Source of the DNA: Syntrophales bacterium
GTDB taxonomy: Bacteria > Desulfobacterota > Syntrophia > Syntrophales > UBA2210
Reading direction: 5' to 3'
Assembly (NCBI GenBank): GCA_963666365.2
Contig: CAXXNF010000001.1
Location: 1,024,001 to 1,088,000, forward strand
Length of the DNA: 64,000 bases
The position numbers and the translations under genes were made by a program. The notes beneath the pieces are model-generated. The model ran no database searches. It was not told the DNA's origin and was given only the letters and a program-made list of their open reading frames with translations. Shown piece after piece: positions 2,080 to 35,327 of the stretch. Within the stretch, counting starts at the first letter, position 1, and each line of letters starts with the position of its first letter.

Positions 2080-2102
2080 GGAAAAATTTCCCTAAAAAAG
2101 GC

Positions 2103-2131
2103 TTGACTTTGATGGGTTACGATGCTAGCGT
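2103..2131 (+). promoter_or_regulatory. Putative sigma70 promoter of the porin gene
   Basis: TTGACT (2103-2108)-17nt-TAGCGT (2126-2131) with extended TG; implies a ~140-nt 5'UTR. Confidence 0.55.
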
Positions 2132-2277
2132 TTCTCGAAATGTCGCCTCGGACGGGTACGTCCCGGGGGTGAAGGAAAGGGGGTGAGCGGGGAAACAGCC
2201 AATCAGCAGACAGGTATATCGGTTCAAAAAATCAAAGGTTTAAAACAGACAATATCTTTTTTTAGGAGGAAAGATAG

Positions 2278-3615
2278 ATGAAAAAATTATTGGTAGCTCT
2301 GTGCGCTCTGGCGCTGGTATGTGCATTCGCCATGCCTGCGGGCGCAACGGACGTGAAGATGAGCGGTGAATATTATGTCCAGGGATATTATTCGGCCAAC
2401 AGCGGTCTGCTGGACAATGCGGCAACGTCGCATGCCTGGTTCAACCAGCGCCTGCGCATGTCCACGATCTTTCAGGTCAACAAGGCCGTCAAATTCACCA
2501 CCCGCTATGACATCATGGAAAGCTACTGGGGCGGTAGCGACTTGTACATCGACAAAGACGGCGCCAACCGCAATTTGAACGGTCCCAATGCAGCGGGCTA
2601 CCGCGACGAAGCCAACATCTCTTTCGATTTCGGCTACTTGACCTTCGTGACCAAGTGCGGTAAGTTCGACGTGGGGTACATGTCCGACGGCGTCTACGGC
2701 ACCGAATTCGGCAATGCCGAAGTGGCGCTGCCCAAGATCGGCTGGTCCATTCCGATCGGCAAGTTCTACAACGTGTTCCAGTACAAGCATTGGGGTGAGC
2801 GCGACGTGATCTCCGGCAACAACGAGTCCGACGAAGATTACACCCGCTACATGGACATCCTCTTCTACTTCGCCAAGACCTGGCAGGCCGGCTTGCTGTA
2901 TCAGTACAATACCGATGCCACCATGTCGGGAGTGGGAGCGCCCCAGGGCTACAAGACGAATTTCCATGTATTGATCCCCTACGTGAAAGCCACCATCGGC
3001 AATCTCTATATCGAGAGCGAACTGAGCTGGATCGACGGTGACTTCCGTGCATGGGAAGCCCCCAATGCCCTCGGCCTTCAGGACATCGACATGAAGGGAC
3101 TCGCCTTCTACCTGAAGGGCAAGTTCGACCTCGGCAAAGGCTACATCGGCGGCCTCTTTGCCTACACCAAGGGGAACGATATCACCGATCCCACCGAACT
3201 CTACGTGTCCAGCGGCGGCGCTGACTGGAATCCCATGCTGATCCTCTGGAATAAGGAATATTTCAACTGGAACGCCAACAATCTGGGCGCCAACACCGCA
3301 TCGGGCGGCACGGGCAATGCGATGGGCAACGCAACGCTGTATCAGATCTTCGGCGGCTTCAACCTCCGGAAGAATCTCGATATCTTTGCGTCCCTCTCCA
3401 TGGCCAAGGCGGACCAGGATTCCGTGGCCGGTCAGATTGACGATGACTACGGCACCGAGTTCGACCTCCAGGCCACCTACAAGATGTTCGACAACCTCGA
3501 ATACATGGTGGGCTTCGGCTACTTCTGGGCCGGCGACTGGTACAAGGGCGCCAACGCAGCACAGGAAATCGACAACGAGTACATCCTGTTCCACAAGCTG
3601 ACGTTGACATTCTAA
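2278..3615 (+). CDS. Outer-membrane beta-barrel protein, probable major porin
   Basis: 445 aa; Sec signal peptide (MKKLLVALCALALVCAFAMPAGA), aromatic-rich amphipathic strands, C-terminal beta-signal HKLTLTF ending in Phe, strong SD TAGGAGG, strongly C-ending codon bias. Confidence 0.8.
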   Translation: MKKLLVALCALALVCAFAMPAGATDVKMSGEYYVQGYYSANSGLLDNAATSHAWFNQRLRMSTIFQVNKAVKFTTRYDIMESYWGGSDLYIDKDGANRNLNGPNAAGYRDEANISFDFGYLTFVTKCGKFDVGYMSDGVYGTEFGNAEVALPKIGWSIPIGKFYNVFQYKHWGERDVISGNNESDEDYTRYMDILFYFAKTWQAGLLYQYNTDATMSGVGAPQGYKTNFHVLIPYVKATIGNLYIESELSWIDGDFRAWEAPNALGLQDIDMKGLAFYLKGKFDLGKGYIGGLFAYTKGNDITDPTELYVSSGGADWNPMLILWNKEYFNWNANNLGANTASGGTGNAMGNATLYQIFGGFNLRKNLDIFASLSMAKADQDSVAGQIDDDYGTEFDLQATYKMFDNLEYMVGFGYFWAGDWYKGANAAQEIDNEYILFHKLTLTF

Positions 3616-30029: not shown

Positions 30030-30057
30030 CGGTCTCTCCTTTGATGTGGTATGGTGT

Positions 30058-31104: not shown

Positions 31105-31209
31105 AATCCTCGCCCGAAATGTCCTCCCTTTTAGTCTGGGACACTGTAAAAAAAATACCTCCTCAATGTCAAAAGAATAATCGACGCCCGCCGTAATAGT
31201 TCCCGCCAC

Positions 31210-31241
31210 AAAAAAAGGGAGACCCTGAGGCCTCCCTTTGC
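31210..31241 (-). terminator. Minus-strand intrinsic terminator with no annotated upstream gene
   Basis: Minus strand CAAAGGGAGGCC-UCAG-GGUCUCCCUUUUUUU. Confidence 0.8.
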
Positions 31242-31425
31242 AAAGGGAATGTACCAACCAATGTTTTTATAACCCGTGCCGCAATCTAAAGAATAACTCT
31301 AAGAACTTACATCCAAAAACAACCCTCGCCTCGCAATTCCACTTCATGTACAATTCAAGGGCTCTCAAAAATCGGTCGGTTCAAAGGTTTAAACCAGAAA
31401 ATTAGGAGGTATTTTCCAGTTCGCC
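31210..31425 (-). ncRNA. Candidate sigma54-dependent small RNA (~215 nt) with anti-SD loop, complementary to the porin 5'UTR
   Basis: Bounded by the -24/-12 promoter (31435-31450) and the terminator (31210-31241); no convincing ORF; 5' hairpin exposes ACCUCCUA. Confidence 0.65.
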
Positions 31426-31434
31426 CTTTTGTAA

Positions 31435-31450
31435 AGCATGGACCGTGCCA
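31435..31450 (-). promoter_or_regulatory. sigma54 (-24/-12) promoter
   Basis: Minus strand TGGCACGGTCCATGCT = GG-N10-GC; adjacent to a sigma54 activator operon. Confidence 0.8.
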
Positions 31451-31531: not shown

Positions 31532-31633
31532 GGAACAAAATGTCGAATTATTTCTCCGCCTCATATTTTTTGAATTAAAAACAGGTAGATGCCTATTCGA
31601 CATCTTTTCGTCGATTCGACAAAATTGTCGAAT
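31532..31633. promoter_or_regulatory. Putative enhancer (bEBP) binding sites
   Basis: Perfect palindrome ATTCGACAA-aa-TTGTCGAAT (31614-31633) plus degenerate copies TTCGACATCTTTTCGTCGA (~31596) and GAACAAAATGTCGAAT (~31532), 80-185 bp upstream of the sigma54 promoter. Confidence 0.65.
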
Positions 31634-31741: not shown

Positions 31742-32188
31742 ATGAAGATACTTCAAGGTGTACGCATATGCGCGTTCGTTGTGATTGTCACGGCAGGCGT
31801 CATCGCCTTTTCGGGCCCCGGTTTTTCAGACAACGCCCTGGAAGATAGTAAAAAAAATTGCACCCCCTTGAGCGAAATGCCCCTCACGGAGGCTCAAAAG
31901 CTTTCTATTGAGACCATCCAAGCGGATTTCAGAAAAGATATACTGCAGATACGCAGTAGTCTCCTGGCGAAGAGAATAGAACTCAACGATCAACTGCGGG
32001 ATCCCTCCATTGATGAAACCGCCATATGGGCCAAGGCGCAGGAGGTGGAAAAACTCAACACCAGCATGGAAGAAACGATTCTTCATTATCAGCTGCGCAT
32101 CAGGAGAGTGTTGACGGCCGCACAGATAGCGACGTGGTGTGCCGGCGCAGAAGCGCCGGCAACGAAAGGATGGAGGCCCCGAGAGTGA
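31742..32188 (+). CDS. Periplasmic Spy/CpxP/ZraP-family protein
   Basis: Signal peptide, two LTxxQ motifs (LTEAQ, LTAAQ), helical; first gene of a kinase-regulator operon. Confidence 0.8.
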   Translation: MKILQGVRICAFVVIVTAGVIAFSGPGFSDNALEDSKKNCTPLSEMPLTEAQKLSIETIQADFRKDILQIRSSLLAKRIELNDQLRDPSIDETAIWAKAQEVEKLNTSMEETILHYQLRIRRVLTAAQIATWCAGAEAPATKGWRPRE

Positions 32189-33966
32189 CACAGGAACGAA
32201 GTGCCTTGTCTCAGTATATCATGCCGATTACTCTCTTTCTGGTGGTTGCCGTCTTTATTGCACTCATTCTGATCATGGGATACATGGATCTGAGAAGGCT
32301 TGACCGAACCCTTGTGGAGTTCGTGCAAAACAGGGGACTCGATATTGTCAAGACGATCGAAAACGTCGCACAGGAAGATCTCGATTTCCTCAGGCTCACC
32401 CTCAAGCAAGACAGCGGTGAACTGGCAGTATCGTCCATACCCCTTTCGCATAAAGAATTTTCCATCCAGGAATCTCTCATAAATGCCCTCATTGACGTGG
32501 CCCGGGACATTGATGTCAAGTGGCGGCAGCAGGGGTTGAGCGAGGACATGCTCAAGGAAATAGCAGCGCTGGAAAAACTCGCCATTATCGCCATCCTAAA
32601 CAAGGAAGGAGAAATCGTCCTTCAGAGCAGAAAATTTGACCGGCACGTCGCCGATCATGCGGACTCGATAAAATCGGCACAGGAAAAAATTGTCATCGAT
32701 ATGTTCAACCGTCTGGGGAATTTGGGCGAGATGGGCTACATTGCACTTCGCAGAAAAGACGGAAGTGGCACCATCGTGATCGGACTCGACGCAGAAAAGC
32801 TGAAATACTGGGGCACGAAGATCGCCGTCAACAAAGTGATAGAAGAAATCGGATGGGAAAAGGAACTCGTATACCTGACCGTGTCTGATCATGACGGAAA
32901 GGTTCTGGGGGCGGCAGGAACATTCCCTGAGGAACCGCCTGAAAGATCACAGCTTCTGACGGATGACATCCTGGCGGGGCGTCTTGACATACTGAGCCGA
33001 AAGATAGGCGCTGCAGATAAGGAGCTTATTGAAATTCTCGCACCGCTGCATCTCGATCGCACCATAATGGGATACGCACGCCTGGGTCTCAAGTGGGATC
33101 GCGCACGGACCATACTGTCGGAAAACAGAAACCGTATGATCATCAGCACCATCTTTATCATGATGATCGGCATTATGTCGACTTTGGCACTCTACCAGAA
33201 TCAGAGCAGGCACCTGGCTCGAATGGACGAGATGGAAAAGCGTCTTCGGCGCGCCGAACGTCTGTCAGCGCTGGGACAGCTCGCTGCCGGAGTGGCGCAC
33301 GAGATCCGCAACCCTCTCAATGCCGTCAGCATGGCAAGCCAGCGGCTTCAAAGGGAGTATGCGCCAAAAGACGAGGAGGAAAGGAATGACTTTTATCGCA
33401 TAACCGGCATTATTCGTGAAGAAATCCGACGACTGAACAGCATAATAGAAGAATTTGTCACATTCTTCAGGATCAGGCGAATGGAATTGAGGAGTCATTC
33501 TCTTGAAGAGGTGCTTAAAAAAATTCTGGAGTTAATGAAAGAAGAACTGGCATCACGAAATATCACATTGAAAAGCTACTGGAAGGGAAACGATGCCTTG
33601 GTGCTGATGGATGCCGATAAATTGACACAAGCATTTTATAATATTATCAAAAATGCCGTTGAATCTATGCCCGCATCAGGGATTATCACCCTGTCGGTCG
33701 ATGCTGTAGGAAAGGACCGACTGGCCGTGAGAATTTCCGATACCGGTGCGGGTTTGTCCGCTGAAGAAATAGAACAGATATTTAATCCCGAATATACCAC
33801 GAAGGAAAAGGGGCTCGGCCTGGGCCTGACCCTTGCACACGAAATAATCAAGGGGCACAGAGGGGAGATTCACGTCTCCAGCAGAAAGGGGGTAGGCGCC
33901 ACTTTTGAGGTTCTGCTCCCTCGAGATCGAGAGACTCTGGGAACCAATCAGGACCTGCAACCATGA
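32185..33966 (+). CDS. Sensor histidine kinase (ZraS/NtrB-like)
   Basis: Two TM segments; AAGVAHEIRNPL H-box, NIIKNA N-box, DTGAG, GLGLGL; GTG overlaps the upstream stop. Confidence 0.93.
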   Translation: MTQERSALSQYIMPITLFLVVAVFIALILIMGYMDLRRLDRTLVEFVQNRGLDIVKTIENVAQEDLDFLRLTLKQDSGELAVSSIPLSHKEFSIQESLINALIDVARDIDVKWRQQGLSEDMLKEIAALEKLAIIAILNKEGEIVLQSRKFDRHVADHADSIKSAQEKIVIDMFNRLGNLGEMGYIALRRKDGSGTIVIGLDAEKLKYWGTKIAVNKVIEEIGWEKELVYLTVSDHDGKVLGAAGTFPEEPPERSQLLTDDILAGRLDILSRKIGAADKELIEILAPLHLDRTIMGYARLGLKWDRARTILSENRNRMIISTIFIMMIGIMSTLALYQNQSRHLARMDEMEKRLRRAERLSALGQLAAGVAHEIRNPLNAVSMASQRLQREYAPKDEEERNDFYRITGIIREEIRRLNSIIEEFVTFFRIRRMELRSHSLEEVLKKILELMKEELASRNITLKSYWKGNDALVLMDADKLTQAFYNIIKNAVESMPASGIITLSVDAVGKDRLAVRISDTGAGLSAEEIEQIFNPEYTTKEKGLGLGLTLAHEIIKGHRGEIHVSSRKGVGATFEVLLPRDRETLGTNQDLQP

Positions 33967-35327
33967 AGCCATTGAACACACTTATCGTTGAAGACGGTCA
34001 CTCACAAAGAGAAATGCTGGGAGATTTTCTCACCAAGGAGGGGCACCTCGTCACCGAAGCCGAAACGGGGGATCAGGCTGTGCGGGAGGTGCTGGAGGGC
34101 CATTTCGACCTTGTGCTGCTGGACTACAAGATGCCGGGCATGAATGGACTCAAAGTGCTTAAAAAGATAAAAGAAATAAATCCCGAAATTGACATTGTGA
34201 TGATGACGGCCTATGGAACGATTGAAACCGCCGTCGAGGCGATGAAGCAGGGCGCCGTCGACTATATCACAAAACCGATCGATCTCGATGAATTGCTTAT
34301 TCTCATCGATCGCATCTCAGAGCGGAGAATCCTGATCAGAGAGAACGAAATTCTGAGGAGAAAACTCTGGAAAAAGGGGATGAAGGACAGCCAGATTGTT
34401 CATCAGAACCCGAAAATGGAGGCACTCATCAATATGGCGGGCCGGGTGGCCTCCAGCCGCGCCACCGTCCTTATCGAAGGGGAAAGCGGAACCGGCAAGG
34501 AACTATTTGCCCGGCTTATTCACAACACAAGCCCCCGTTCCGAAAAGCCCATGATCGTGGTGAATTGCGGCGCCCTTCCCGAAACACTTCTCGAAAGCGA
34601 ACTCTTCGGTCACGAAAAAGGGGCCTTCACGGGCGCGACAACCCGTCGAGTCGGCCGTTTTGAAGAGGCCGATGGAGGAACGCTTTTCCTTGATGAAATC
34701 GGCGAACTCTCGGCGCCGGTCCAGGTGAAACTGCTTCGCTTTCTCCAGGAGCGGGAATTTCAGCGCCTGGGAGGCAACCAGACCCTGAAGGCCGATGTAA
34801 GAATCATCAGTGCCACAAACCGCAACCTGGAAGAGCTGATGAAAAAGGGAATTTTCAGGGACGATCTTTATTACCGTTTGAATGTCGTGGTCATGCAGAT
34901 TCCTCCGCTTCGCGAGAGAAAGGAAGATATCCCTCTGCTGGTGCAGCACTTCATCGATATCTTTTCCCGTGAAAACGATAAAGAGATCAATGGTGTCAGC
35001 AGCGAGGCCCTGGACGTGCTTCTGAAATACGACTACCCCGGCAATGTGCGGGAACTTGAGAATATCATGGAACGGGCTGCCGTCATCACCCGGGACACGA
35101 TAATTTCCCTTCGTGATCTCCCCTTCAGGGATACCCCGGGCCAACAGACGGGGGAACCGAAACGGCACGGCAGCCTCATAAAGGACTCCGTTGAAACGCT
35201 GGAGTGTCAACTCATCGAACAGGCGCTGGCCGAAGCAGACCACAATCAGACCCGGGCAGCCGAACAGCTGGGAATTACGGAACGAACCCTGAGATATAAA
35301 ATGAAAAAATACGGCCTGAAACAGTAA
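33963..35327 (+). CDS. sigma54-dependent response regulator (ZraR/AtoC/NtrC family)
   Basis: Receiver domain DYKMP, GESGTGKE, ESELFGHEKGAFTGA, PGNVRELEN, Fis-type HTH. Confidence 0.96.
   Translation: MKPLNTLIVEDGHSQREMLGDFLTKEGHLVTEAETGDQAVREVLEGHFDLVLLDYKMPGMNGLKVLKKIKEINPEIDIVMMTAYGTIETAVEAMKQGAVDYITKPIDLDELLILIDRISERRILIRENEILRRKLWKKGMKDSQIVHQNPKMEALINMAGRVASSRATVLIEGESGTGKELFARLIHNTSPRSEKPMIVVNCGALPETLLESELFGHEKGAFTGATTRRVGRFEEADGGTLFLDEIGELSAPVQVKLLRFLQEREFQRLGGNQTLKADVRIISATNRNLEELMKKGIFRDDLYYRLNVVVMQIPPLRERKEDIPLLVQHFIDIFSRENDKEINGVSSEALDVLLKYDYPGNVRELENIMERAAVITRDTIISLRDLPFRDTPGQQTGEPKRHGSLIKDSVETLECQLIEQALAEADHNQTRAAEQLGITERTLRYKMKKYGLKQ

Follow-up and report, generated by a model that had tools for sequence, protein, structure and literature searches.

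Organization of the locus

The stretch of DNA analysed here, referred to below as the window, comprises 64,000 nucleotides (64 kb) of the genome of a Syntrophales bacterium (assembly GCA_963666365.2, contig CAXXNF010000001.1, positions 1,024,001 to 1,088,000), and all coordinates are those of the window unless otherwise stated. On its minus strand it carries a candidate gene for a small RNA (sRNA), which lies next to a divergent gene cluster for a two-component system and 29 kb away from the gene of a porin-like outer-membrane protein (OMP). Comparison with related genomes shows a conserved promoter with its upstream sites, a conserved gene order and RNA fold, and a complementarity of RNA and mRNA that is both conserved and co-varying. 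The reading that we propose on this basis is that a trans-acting, sigma-54-dependent sRNA, probably driven by the neighbouring two-component system, clamps the leader of the porin-like mRNA and represses this gene, and we give this reading a probability of about 0.68. The parts of the sRNA gene are as follows.

31436..31450, minus strand: predicted sigma-54 promoter TGGCAC-GGTCCA-TGC, with the -24 GG and the -12 GC (spelled TGGCACGGTCCATGCT at 31450-31435)
31207..31424, minus strand: predicted sRNA of about 218 nt, its start being placed about 12 nt 3′ of the -12 GC and its end at the U tail of the terminator
31391..31422, minus strand: stem-loop 1, CUGGAAAAU-ACCUCCUA-AUUUUCUGG at about 31419-31394
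31410-31403, minus strand: loop of stem-loop 1, ACCUCCUA, with the anti-Shine-Dalgarno sequence CCUCCU at 31409-31404
31381..31393, minus strand: linker UUUAAACCUUUGA, a single-stranded stretch joining stem-loop 1 to helix P2, the proposed seed
31253..31380, minus strand: central domain closed by the long-range helix P2, in which ACCGACCGAU (31380-31371) pairs with AUUGGUUGGU (31262-31253)
31207..31239, minus strand: intrinsic terminator with an 11-bp stem and a 4-nt loop (31239-31214), followed by UUUUUUU to 31207

A first-pass annotation, made from the letters of the window alone, had described at this place a minus-strand promoter TGGCAC-N5-ATGCT, a U-tailed terminator with no credible gene in between, and a 5′ hairpin that displays an anti-Shine-Dalgarno sequence. 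Each of these elements was found in the present analysis: the promoter at 31450-31436, the terminator stem with its U7 tail at 31239-31207, and the CCUCCU loop with a predicted unpaired probability of 0.96-1.0. The GG of the -24 element and the GC of the -12 element stand at the canonical spacing (TGGCAC-N5-TTGCW), and rpoN is encoded in the genome (218.8 bits). The sRNA promoter is the sole exact match to TGGCAC-N6-TGC in the window. When one mismatch at most was allowed, 8 matches were found in the window against 12.3 expected, and the sigma-54 motif by itself is thus within the chance expectation and proves nothing alone. The core GGYAY-N6-TGC was kept in all 31 of the aligned homologues.

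No conserved open reading frame (ORF) was found inside the sRNA interval by comparison of the relatives, and the central part of the RNA differs in length among them by numbers that are not multiples of 3. The element has a promoter and a terminator of its own, is non-coding and has a conserved secondary structure, as is characteristic of a trans-acting sRNA. With high confidence, the interval may be assigned as the gene of a sigma-54-driven sRNA that occurs family-wide, and we infer that the RNA is made.

Conservation and structure of the RNA family

After a BLAST search of relatives had detected the element in several genera, a covariance model, R1, was built from 8 sequences that extend from the promoter through stem-loop 1 and the linker into helix P2, of which the 5′ half is included. 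The locus in the window scored 111.9 bits, and exactly one match per genome was obtained in 30 of the 38 genomes of the family, representing 9 of its 10 genera, together with weak, divergent but syntenic copies in two further genomes (G042 and G006). In an order-wide sample, to which stricter filters were applied, R1 was detected in 10 of 11 family genomes and in none of the 139 genomes from 23 other families. A scan of 185,579 species genomes for the exact pattern gave 23 loci, whereas roughly 9 matches to this pattern are estimated to arise by chance. The sources of 16 loci were metagenome-assembled genomes (MAGs) named Syntrophaceae (7), Syntrophales (3), Syntrophobacterales (1) or "Deltaproteobacteria bacterium" (5), and those of the other 7 were unrelated taxa. 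The taxon names of these MAGs suggest that the RNA-carrying family is Syntrophaceae.

A second, weak R1 match in this genome (E 0.26) was rejected, since it is merely another good sigma-54 promoter, TGGCATGAATTATGCT, which precedes a protein-coding gene (L126:1518-1535; G000:C1, ~520,980).

The search of Rfam proposed in the first-pass annotation indicated that no known family matches the locus. By cmscan of the whole window, no family reached its gathering threshold, including MicA, MicF, RybB, OmrA-B, Qrr and GlmY; the segment 31100-31500 gave only sub-threshold chance matches (STnc100, 18.8 versus a threshold of 47; sRNA41; SNORD63), and the loci of 8 relatives gave only tRNAs. The RNA is a new family that is not covered by Rfam.

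The loop of stem-loop 1 is CCUCCU in 27 of 30 sequences, UCUCCU in two and CCUCCA in one. In an alignment of 31 sequences, 92.5% of the cells of stem-loop 1 were paired and both sides were changed in 5 of its 8 pairs, a level of covariation that was reached by none of 500 shuffles, while slid controls were much worse. For helix P2 and the terminator, compensatory changes were seen in the full-length alignment of 7 sequences, in all of which the terminator is conserved. The G-U pairs of P2 become C-A mismatches if read on the plus strand. In other genera quite different sequences still form a helix at the position of P2, as read by eye, and in the genera g9 and g10 the P2 domain is replaced by a second hairpin with a second CCUCCU loop. 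Structure prediction for 25 of the 30 homologous RNAs gave an unpaired probability of about 0.9 for the loop and about 0.55 for the core of the linker, with an overall mean of about 0.4.

A sibling sRNA was noticed at a different, non-syntenic locus in 11 of the 38 family genomes, all of genera g9 and g10 (L088 (G014:C2:346640-346790), L089 (G047:C72) and L135-L140); it is absent from the genome under study. Its sigma-54 promoter is followed by a hairpin with the loop CCUCCUCC, by the seed AGCUUAAACCC, and by another hairpin and a terminator with a U8 tail. The sibling keeps the loop and the seed of the primary RNA and is present also in genomes that have no R1 primary copy. Siblings with a common seed are typical of base-pairing sRNAs.

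The RNA chaperone Hfq (PF17209) was detected in none of the 38 family genomes, although 27 of these have a completeness of 90% or more and the protein was detected in control genomes. Since Hfq is thus found in no genome of the family, the long two-site pairing described below probably works without this chaperone.

Complementarity of the sRNA to the leader of a porin-like gene

The putative target is located near the left end of the window.

2278..3615, plus strand: porin-like OMP of 445 aa, the N-terminus of which resembles a signal peptide and the C-terminal residue of which is Phe
2232..2269, plus strand: proposed target in the leader, with the seed site UCAAAGGUUUAAA at 2232-2244 and the Shine-Dalgarno sequence UUAGGAGG at 2262-2269, followed by the ATG at 2278

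The first-pass annotation had noted an ordered match between the sRNA locus and this leader, including an exact 13-mer, and had concluded that the minus-strand RNA is complementary to the leader through its Shine-Dalgarno sequence. The match exists as described: the 13-mer TCAAAGGTTTAAA is found at both 2232-2244 and 31381-31393, so that the linker of the RNA is the exact complement of the leader segment, and TTAGGAGG is found at 2262-2269 and 31402-31409, while TCGGTTCAAA (2220-2229) is also common to both loci in collinear order. The 13-mer occurs three times in the 4.0-Mb genome, and the third occurrence, within a coding region, looks like chance. A single-genome match of this kind is merely suggestive, and it is the conservation in relatives that lifts it above chance. 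In the predicted fold of the leader the target site is mostly unpaired and the Shine-Dalgarno sequence is not strongly sequestered.

Homologues of the porin-like protein were found in 28 of the 38 family genomes. In their leaders a conserved AAGGGTTTAAG is followed by (C/T)AGGAGG. The family consensus of the linker, CUUAAACCCUU, is the complement of this conserved motif, and it pairs with the porin-leader motif AAGGGUUUAAG in all of the 17 genomes that have both the RNA and the porin-like gene. The duplexes formed between each genome's own linker and own leader range from -11.8 to -20.8 kcal/mol (mean -16.9), and in every case the distance from the end of the seed site to the ATG of the porin-like gene is 23-32 nt. 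For 14 of these 17 genomes, no more than 2 of 200 shuffled leaders were as good as the natural one. As controls, leaders of the downstream genes (n=16) gave a mean of -8.5 kcal/mol, with one outlier, the FabK-like gene of this genome (-14.2).

The compensatory changes that the first-pass annotation had asked for in relatives were found not only in the RNA helices but also at both contacts with the leader. In the linker, two positions (positions 5 and 13) are G-C in the family and A-U in the genus under study (G000 and G001), one of them being A-U also in genus g4; in addition, RNAs with A-to-G variants of the linker still pair with the consensus site through G-U. The flank of the loop changes together with the context of the Shine-Dalgarno sequence: CCUCCUA goes with UAGGAGG in G000, in G001 and, independently, in G048 (genus g10). 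The combination of CCUCCUG and CAGGAGG is found in 12 genomes, that of CCUCCAG and CUGGAGG in G012, and that of UCUCCUGAA and UUCAGGAG in G016.

A search for the pattern AGGGTTTAAG-N12-24-AGGAGG gave a single match in each of the 5 genomes searched, which lay in the porin leader every time, and the reversed control gave 0. With a looser pattern, again in 5 genomes including the present one, the matches were only the porin leaders, the opposite strands of the RNA genes and a second OMP-like gene of G015. Order-wide, the site pattern was found in 5 of 11 family genomes and in 1 of 139 others, with 2 matches of the reversed control in 151 genomes, from which it follows that site and RNA have the same narrow distribution. 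Taken together, the conserved, co-varying complementarity to an mRNA encoded elsewhere, 29 kb away in this genome, is the pattern known for trans-acting sRNAs, and the porin-like mRNA is probably, as judged from these comparisons, a direct target of the sRNA.

The product of 2278-3615 may be described as porin-like. The NCBIfam model DESULF_POR1 ("outer membrane homotrimeric porin") matched the N-terminal 100 residues only (58.8 versus a cut-off of 250), and it matched the N-terminus of 15 of 15 homologues, likewise below threshold. The Alginate_exp model gave an E-value of 0.0049 for the window protein and weak, sub-threshold matches in 12 of 15 homologues. The C-terminal Phe is invariant among the homologues, and among the Atlas neighbours of the protein Alginate_exp or Porin_4 is found in a minority of members. 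A profile search of PDB with this protein gave nothing useful.

Some further observations were made on these genes. The leader of the porin-like gene (window 2100-2215 and homologues) is about 150 nt long and lies behind a conserved TTGACA-type promoter; some 70-110 nt before the ATG stands a G-rich element resembling GGGGGTGA(T)CACGGA(A), which is kept across genera. The distance between the porin homologue and the sRNA gene is about 3 kb in G012 (G012:C15:27809-32104) and about 22 kb in the same-genus relative, compared with 29 kb in the window. The second OMP-like gene of G015 (L133:145-1537; G015:C136, minus strand) codes for a protein of 449 aa that has a signal peptide and ends in Phe, is divergent from the porin homologue, lies about 1.7 kb upstream of it, and bears the leader site AGGGTTTAAGC...TTCAGGAGG, which suggests a small OMP regulon.

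The neighbouring two-component system and the upstream sites

The genes and sites on the other side of the sRNA promoter are listed below.

31742..32188, plus strand: ZraP/Spy/CpxP-like periplasmic protein, divergent from the sRNA gene (Metal_resist of Pfam, 32.8 versus a cut-off of 29.2)
32170..33966, plus strand: sensor histidine kinase with two transmembrane segments flanking a periplasmic domain of about 285 aa (start uncertain, 32170-32218)
33963..35327, plus strand: NtrC-family response regulator and sigma-54 activator, with receiver, AAA+ sigma-54 interaction and Fis-type helix-turn-helix domains
31614..31633: predicted distal upstream activator site, the palindrome ATTCGACA-AAAT-TGTCGAAT, about 165-185 nt upstream of the -24 element
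31597-31602: extra half-site TCGACA
31532..31549, minus strand: predicted proximal upstream activator site AATTCGACATTTTGTTCC, in which TCGACA (31541-31546) stands 97 nt upstream of the -24 GG

By tblastn, the kinase gene was found upstream of and divergent from the RNA gene in 29 of 30 loci, the 30th of which ends at a contig edge; the order of the activator gene behind the kinase gene was read in this window. Of the 30 loci, 29 have at least one TCGACA or TGTCGA at fixed distances upstream of the promoter, compared with 7 of 30 control regions. The sites fall into two groups: a proximal cluster, at -82 to -97 from the -24 GG, accounts for 26 of the TCGACA matches over the 30 loci, and a distal cluster is formed by the palindrome TCGACA-N4-TGTCGA at about -160 to -190 in most of them. 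The genome thus holds an NtrC-family activator, the upstream sites and rpoN. In view of the usual architecture of sigma-54 enhancers, the neighbouring activator is likely to bind the TCGACA sites and to drive the promoter of the RNA. No canonical sigma-54 promoter for the ZraP-like gene or the kinase gene was seen by eye on the plus strand between 31450 and 31741.

The ZraP/S/R-like and envelope-stress labels given to this operon by the first-pass annotation could not be established. The scores of the equivalog models were below the cut-off in each case (ZraP, 30.6 versus 200; ZraS, 195.2 versus 479; ZraR, 450.5 versus 760), and the models of AtoS and AtoC, which outscored those of ZraS and ZraR, were likewise under their cut-offs. 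The ZraP-like gene adjoins the RNA locus in only 5 of the 30 loci and is not a constant partner of the kinase and regulator pair.

Proposed circuit and mode of control

The circuit suggested by these observations would begin with the kinase, which would sense a periplasmic signal and phosphorylate the NtrC-family activator. The activator would then bind the TCGACA/TGTCGA sites and open the sigma-54 promoter, leading to synthesis of the RNA of about 218 nt. The linker of this RNA would pair with the leader motif that ends 23-32 nt before the ATG, and its CCUCCU loop would pair with the Shine-Dalgarno sequence; the resulting two-site clamp would block binding of the 30S subunit, and less of this major porin-like protein would be synthesized upon activation of the kinase. 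Because the pairing overlaps the Shine-Dalgarno sequence, repression by its occlusion is likely, rather than activation. The chain from sensor to kinase, enhancer-binding protein, sigma-54 sRNA and porin repression that the first-pass annotation had drawn is supported by the promoter, the synteny, the upstream sites, the RNA structure and the pairing, and its last step is deduced from the overlap with the Shine-Dalgarno sequence.

It may be argued that the RNA does pair with the porin leader but stabilises or activates the mRNA, or that the leader acts as a sponge that titrates the RNA from other targets. The seed site, at 33-46 nt upstream of the ATG, is outside the ribosome footprint, and the long leader (about 150 nt) carries other conserved elements, as would suit such a role. 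The second contact, however, includes the Shine-Dalgarno sequence itself and varies in step with its flank, an arrangement that is classic for an initiation block, and a Shine-Dalgarno sequence that is not strongly sequestered in the free leader leaves little for an activator to release. Activation or titration is accordingly considered unlikely, and repression is retained as the preferred mode of control.

On the boldest reading, this lineage devoid of detectable Hfq may have evolved a "clamp" type of riboregulator, in which a loop mimicking the anti-Shine-Dalgarno sequence of 16S rRNA is combined with an adjacent seed, one or two sibling copies are kept, expression is driven by a periplasm-sensing kinase and a sigma-54 activator, outer-membrane permeability is tuned, and both contacts have co-evolved family-wide. 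This reading is less likely than not. If true, a clamp riboregulator could gate the exchange of metabolites or electron carriers with partners in obligate syntrophs.

Target ranking and specificity of the pairing

The genome-wide rank of the porin leader among predicted targets, which the first-pass annotation had put forward as a check, was determined on a crude set of 11,357 ORF starts (at least 80 aa), many of them spurious. For the two-site model, the 13-nt linker was paired with the region from -80 to +20 and a 10-nt segment with the loop was paired with the Shine-Dalgarno region. The start of the porin-like gene was then 1st of 11,354 (-26.9; the next, -23.8), and by the linker alone it was 2nd. 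The runners-up of the two-site model were of mixed function (PHP, radical SAM, DctP, ABC ATPase, integrase, flagellin and others). The model fits the structure because the linker is the exact stretch between stem-loop 1 and P2.

The pairing of CCUCCU raises the question of whether the RNA is a general regulator, that is, a mimic of the anti-Shine-Dalgarno sequence acting on many mRNAs, or a protein-binding RNA, for which the porin would be one contact among others or an incidental one. Any strong Shine-Dalgarno sequence is open to pairing with CCUCCU, values of -12 to -14.5 kcal/mol are reached by the loop alone at many start regions, and the start of the FabK-like gene has UCAAAGG at its Shine-Dalgarno sequence (-14.2). 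Against this, in 5 of 5 genomes the linker motif is combined with AGGAGG in porin-like leaders only, the runners-up are functionally unrelated and pair less well with the linker, the flank of the loop co-varies specifically with the context of the porin Shine-Dalgarno sequence, and the FabK-like match is not general among the relatives. Such a general role is thus quite unlikely, slightly more so than activation or titration, and specific control of the porin-like mRNA is preferred.

As to the FabK-like match itself, AUCAAAGGAGAGACC at the Shine-Dalgarno sequence of this gene (30030-30050, minus strand) can pair with the 3′ part of the linker, the value of -14.2 kcal/mol having been obtained with a 17-nt query. 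The same control in relatives gave -4.5 to -12.3, and the match is probably genome-specific or due to chance.

A number of observations weigh against the proposed control of the porin-like gene by the sRNA. The first group of these concerns the ranking, which depends on the model. In a nested cofold model, which cannot represent loop-kissing contacts, the porin start was only 45th of 11,354 (-9.7 kcal/mol), and in a naive duplex scan with the 54-nt 5′ part of the RNA, which gives inflated energies (median -19) and discriminates poorly, its rank was about 22 among 19,640 seeded sites. Most of the best-scoring starts in both models belonged to short ORFs that are probably spurious. The segments of the two-site model were taken from the structure, but the model was adopted with the hypothesis known, and the comparative evidence therefore outweighs its 1st rank.

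The second group of observations concerns the comparative evidence itself. The linker-leader duplex was matched by many shuffles in G021 (12/200), G052 (36/200) and G046 (48/200). Cognate pairs of linker and leader were only modestly better than non-cognate pairs (-16.9 versus -14.1). The duplex of G052 has a central C-C mismatch, and the site is largely lost in G046, where 6-7 pairs are left, and in G042. Compensatory events are small in number and are shared by descent within genera. No porin homologue was found with this query in 8 genomes that bear the RNA, and the consensus site was absent from the 5 tested genomes that have no detectable porin homologue. When five genomes with variant linkers were searched for the compensated GGGYCTAAG followed by GGAG, no convincing site was obtained, the counts being at or below those of the reversed control; the matches to GGGYCTAAG were the opposite strands of the RNA genes and 3 others in G011. 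The porin-like identity of the target depends on sub-threshold matches only. In genera g9 and g10, finally, there is no clear U-tail terminator, and read-through into the downstream gene is possible there.

Relation to known regulatory systems

In the Qrr1/LuxO system of Vibrio, the sRNA gene stands beside the gene of its regulator, an NtrC-family protein that acts at a sigma-54 promoter via upstream sites, and the Qrr RNAs act with Hfq. The glmY gene beside qseEGF is likewise transcribed from a sigma-54 promoter that is activated by an NtrC-family regulator via upstream sites (PMC8745638). Qrr1/LuxO and the GlmY/GlrK-GlrR (QseE/QseF) system of Enterobacterales are the closest in architecture to the locus described here, a sigma-54 sRNA gene adjoining the operon of its known or presumed activator being common to all. 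Neither Qrr1 nor GlmY has any sequence or Rfam relationship to the RNA of this study. The targets of Qrr and GlmY are the mRNA of a quorum-sensing regulator and glmS, respectively, whereas the target proposed here is a porin-like OMP, and Qrr uses Hfq, in contrast to the RNA-carrying family with its 0 of 38 genomes.

With respect to function, the closest systems are MicF, MicA, RybB and OmrA/OmrB, to the families of which the present RNA does not belong. These and MicC are trans-encoded, are induced by envelope or osmolarity signals and pair near the ribosome-binding site of abundant OMP mRNAs; control of porins by sRNAs is textbook knowledge in enterobacteria. The enterobacterial porin sRNAs are transcribed with sigma-70 and OmpR or with sigma-E and depend on Hfq, whereas the RNA described here would depend on sigma-54 and an enhancer-binding protein and would pair through a loop plus a linker. 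Repression of OMP mRNAs by trans-encoded sRNAs has been stated in general terms (PMC10117139). The same paper describes NcS25 of Burkholderia cenocepacia, a conserved sRNA for which the porin mRNA BCAL3473 is predicted as a conserved target, the pairing being at the 5′ untranslated region and the Shine-Dalgarno region; in its passages on regulation, NcS25 is constitutive, and sigma-54/NtrC is linked to the porin promoter and not to the sRNA (PMC10117139). NcS25 has no sequence relationship to the RNA described here, and the common point is the conserved predicted porin target.

C/U-rich loops that pair with G-rich ribosome-binding sites independently of Hfq are known for RsaE/RoxS of Firmicutes and for sRNAs of Campylobacter and Helicobacter; RpoN-dependent sRNAs of Campylobacter jejuni have reportedly been the subject of a study. 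The RNA of the present study differs from the RsaE/RoxS type in that its loop is a literal CCUCCU, that its specificity would come from a second, single-stranded seed 3′ of the hairpin, and that it is restricted to one deltaproteobacterial family.

In the literature accessible through the Creative Commons part of PMC and through bioRxiv, no sRNA was found to be described in Syntrophus aciditrophicus or Syntrophales, nor any sigma-54-dependent sRNA that targets a porin. What is new is the RNA family and its probable porin target, while the circuit is a variation on the known control of porins by sRNAs. Syntrophaceae and their relatives are slow-growing, genetically difficult syntrophs that are central to methanogenic degradation, and to our knowledge the control of porins by sRNAs is essentially uncharted in them. 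The locus offers a complete and testable candidate circuit, composed of a sensor kinase, a sigma-54 activator, an sRNA and a porin mRNA, with covariation at both contacts. It is a candidate for an Rfam family and a putative example of sigma-54-driven porin control, and it would illustrate a way of giving specificity to an anti-Shine-Dalgarno loop in genomes in which Hfq is not detected. For organisms of methanogenic degradation, it may provide a regulatory handle on the permeability of the outer membrane.

Downstream genes and independence of the transcription unit

The following elements lie downstream of the sRNA gene.

31172-31143, minus strand: predicted sigma-70-type promoter TTGACA-18-TACAGT (10/12 matches), directly after the sRNA terminator
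31104-30058, minus strand: squalene/phytoene-synthase-family gene
30029-28980, minus strand: FabK-like gene of the NMO family

In 28 of 30 loci the downstream region contains either the FabK-like gene alone or a synthase-like gene followed by the FabK-like gene, the other two loci being truncated.

Instead of being an independent sRNA, the transcript might act in cis on the downstream operon, as its leader or attenuator. Transcript and next gene share one strand and are separated by about 100 nt; the second hairpin of genera g9 and g10 is not followed by an obvious U-tail; and in this genome the 11-nt sequence GGAGGUAUUUU further downstream is complementary to stem-loop 1. However, the strong terminator is followed by the sigma-70-type promoter, and the TTGACA and TACAGT hexamers recur in the relative from the same genus. 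In g9 and g10, too, the FabK-like gene has a TTGACA(C) promoter in front of it. Moreover, the identity of the first downstream gene varies by genus (squalene-synthase-like or FabK-like) whereas the RNA is constant, and the 11-mer is situated in the spacer of the sigma-70-type promoter and is absent from the same-genus relative. A cis-acting leader is thus very unlikely, in agreement with an independent transcription unit for the sRNA.

The last alternative is that the region is the decayed plus-strand leader of a lost porin paralogue, which the first-pass annotation had named among the findings that would overturn it, or a product of chance, with no functional RNA. It could draw on the collinear match between plus strand and leader and on the evident chance copy of the 13-mer in a coding region, but is hardly credible, since it is contradicted by G-U pairs that are valid on the minus strand only, by one copy per genome with promoter, structure and terminator across 9 of 10 genera, and by a plus-strand AGGAGG that is followed by no start codon.

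An 11-nt inverted repeat, GGAGGTATTTT, was also noticed at the locus. The genome contains it 5 times, but the relative from the same genus has not kept it, and it is probably due to chance; its two copies at the locus are at 31405-31415 (plus strand, within stem-loop 1) and at 31152-31162 (minus strand, within the spacer of the sigma-70-type promoter).

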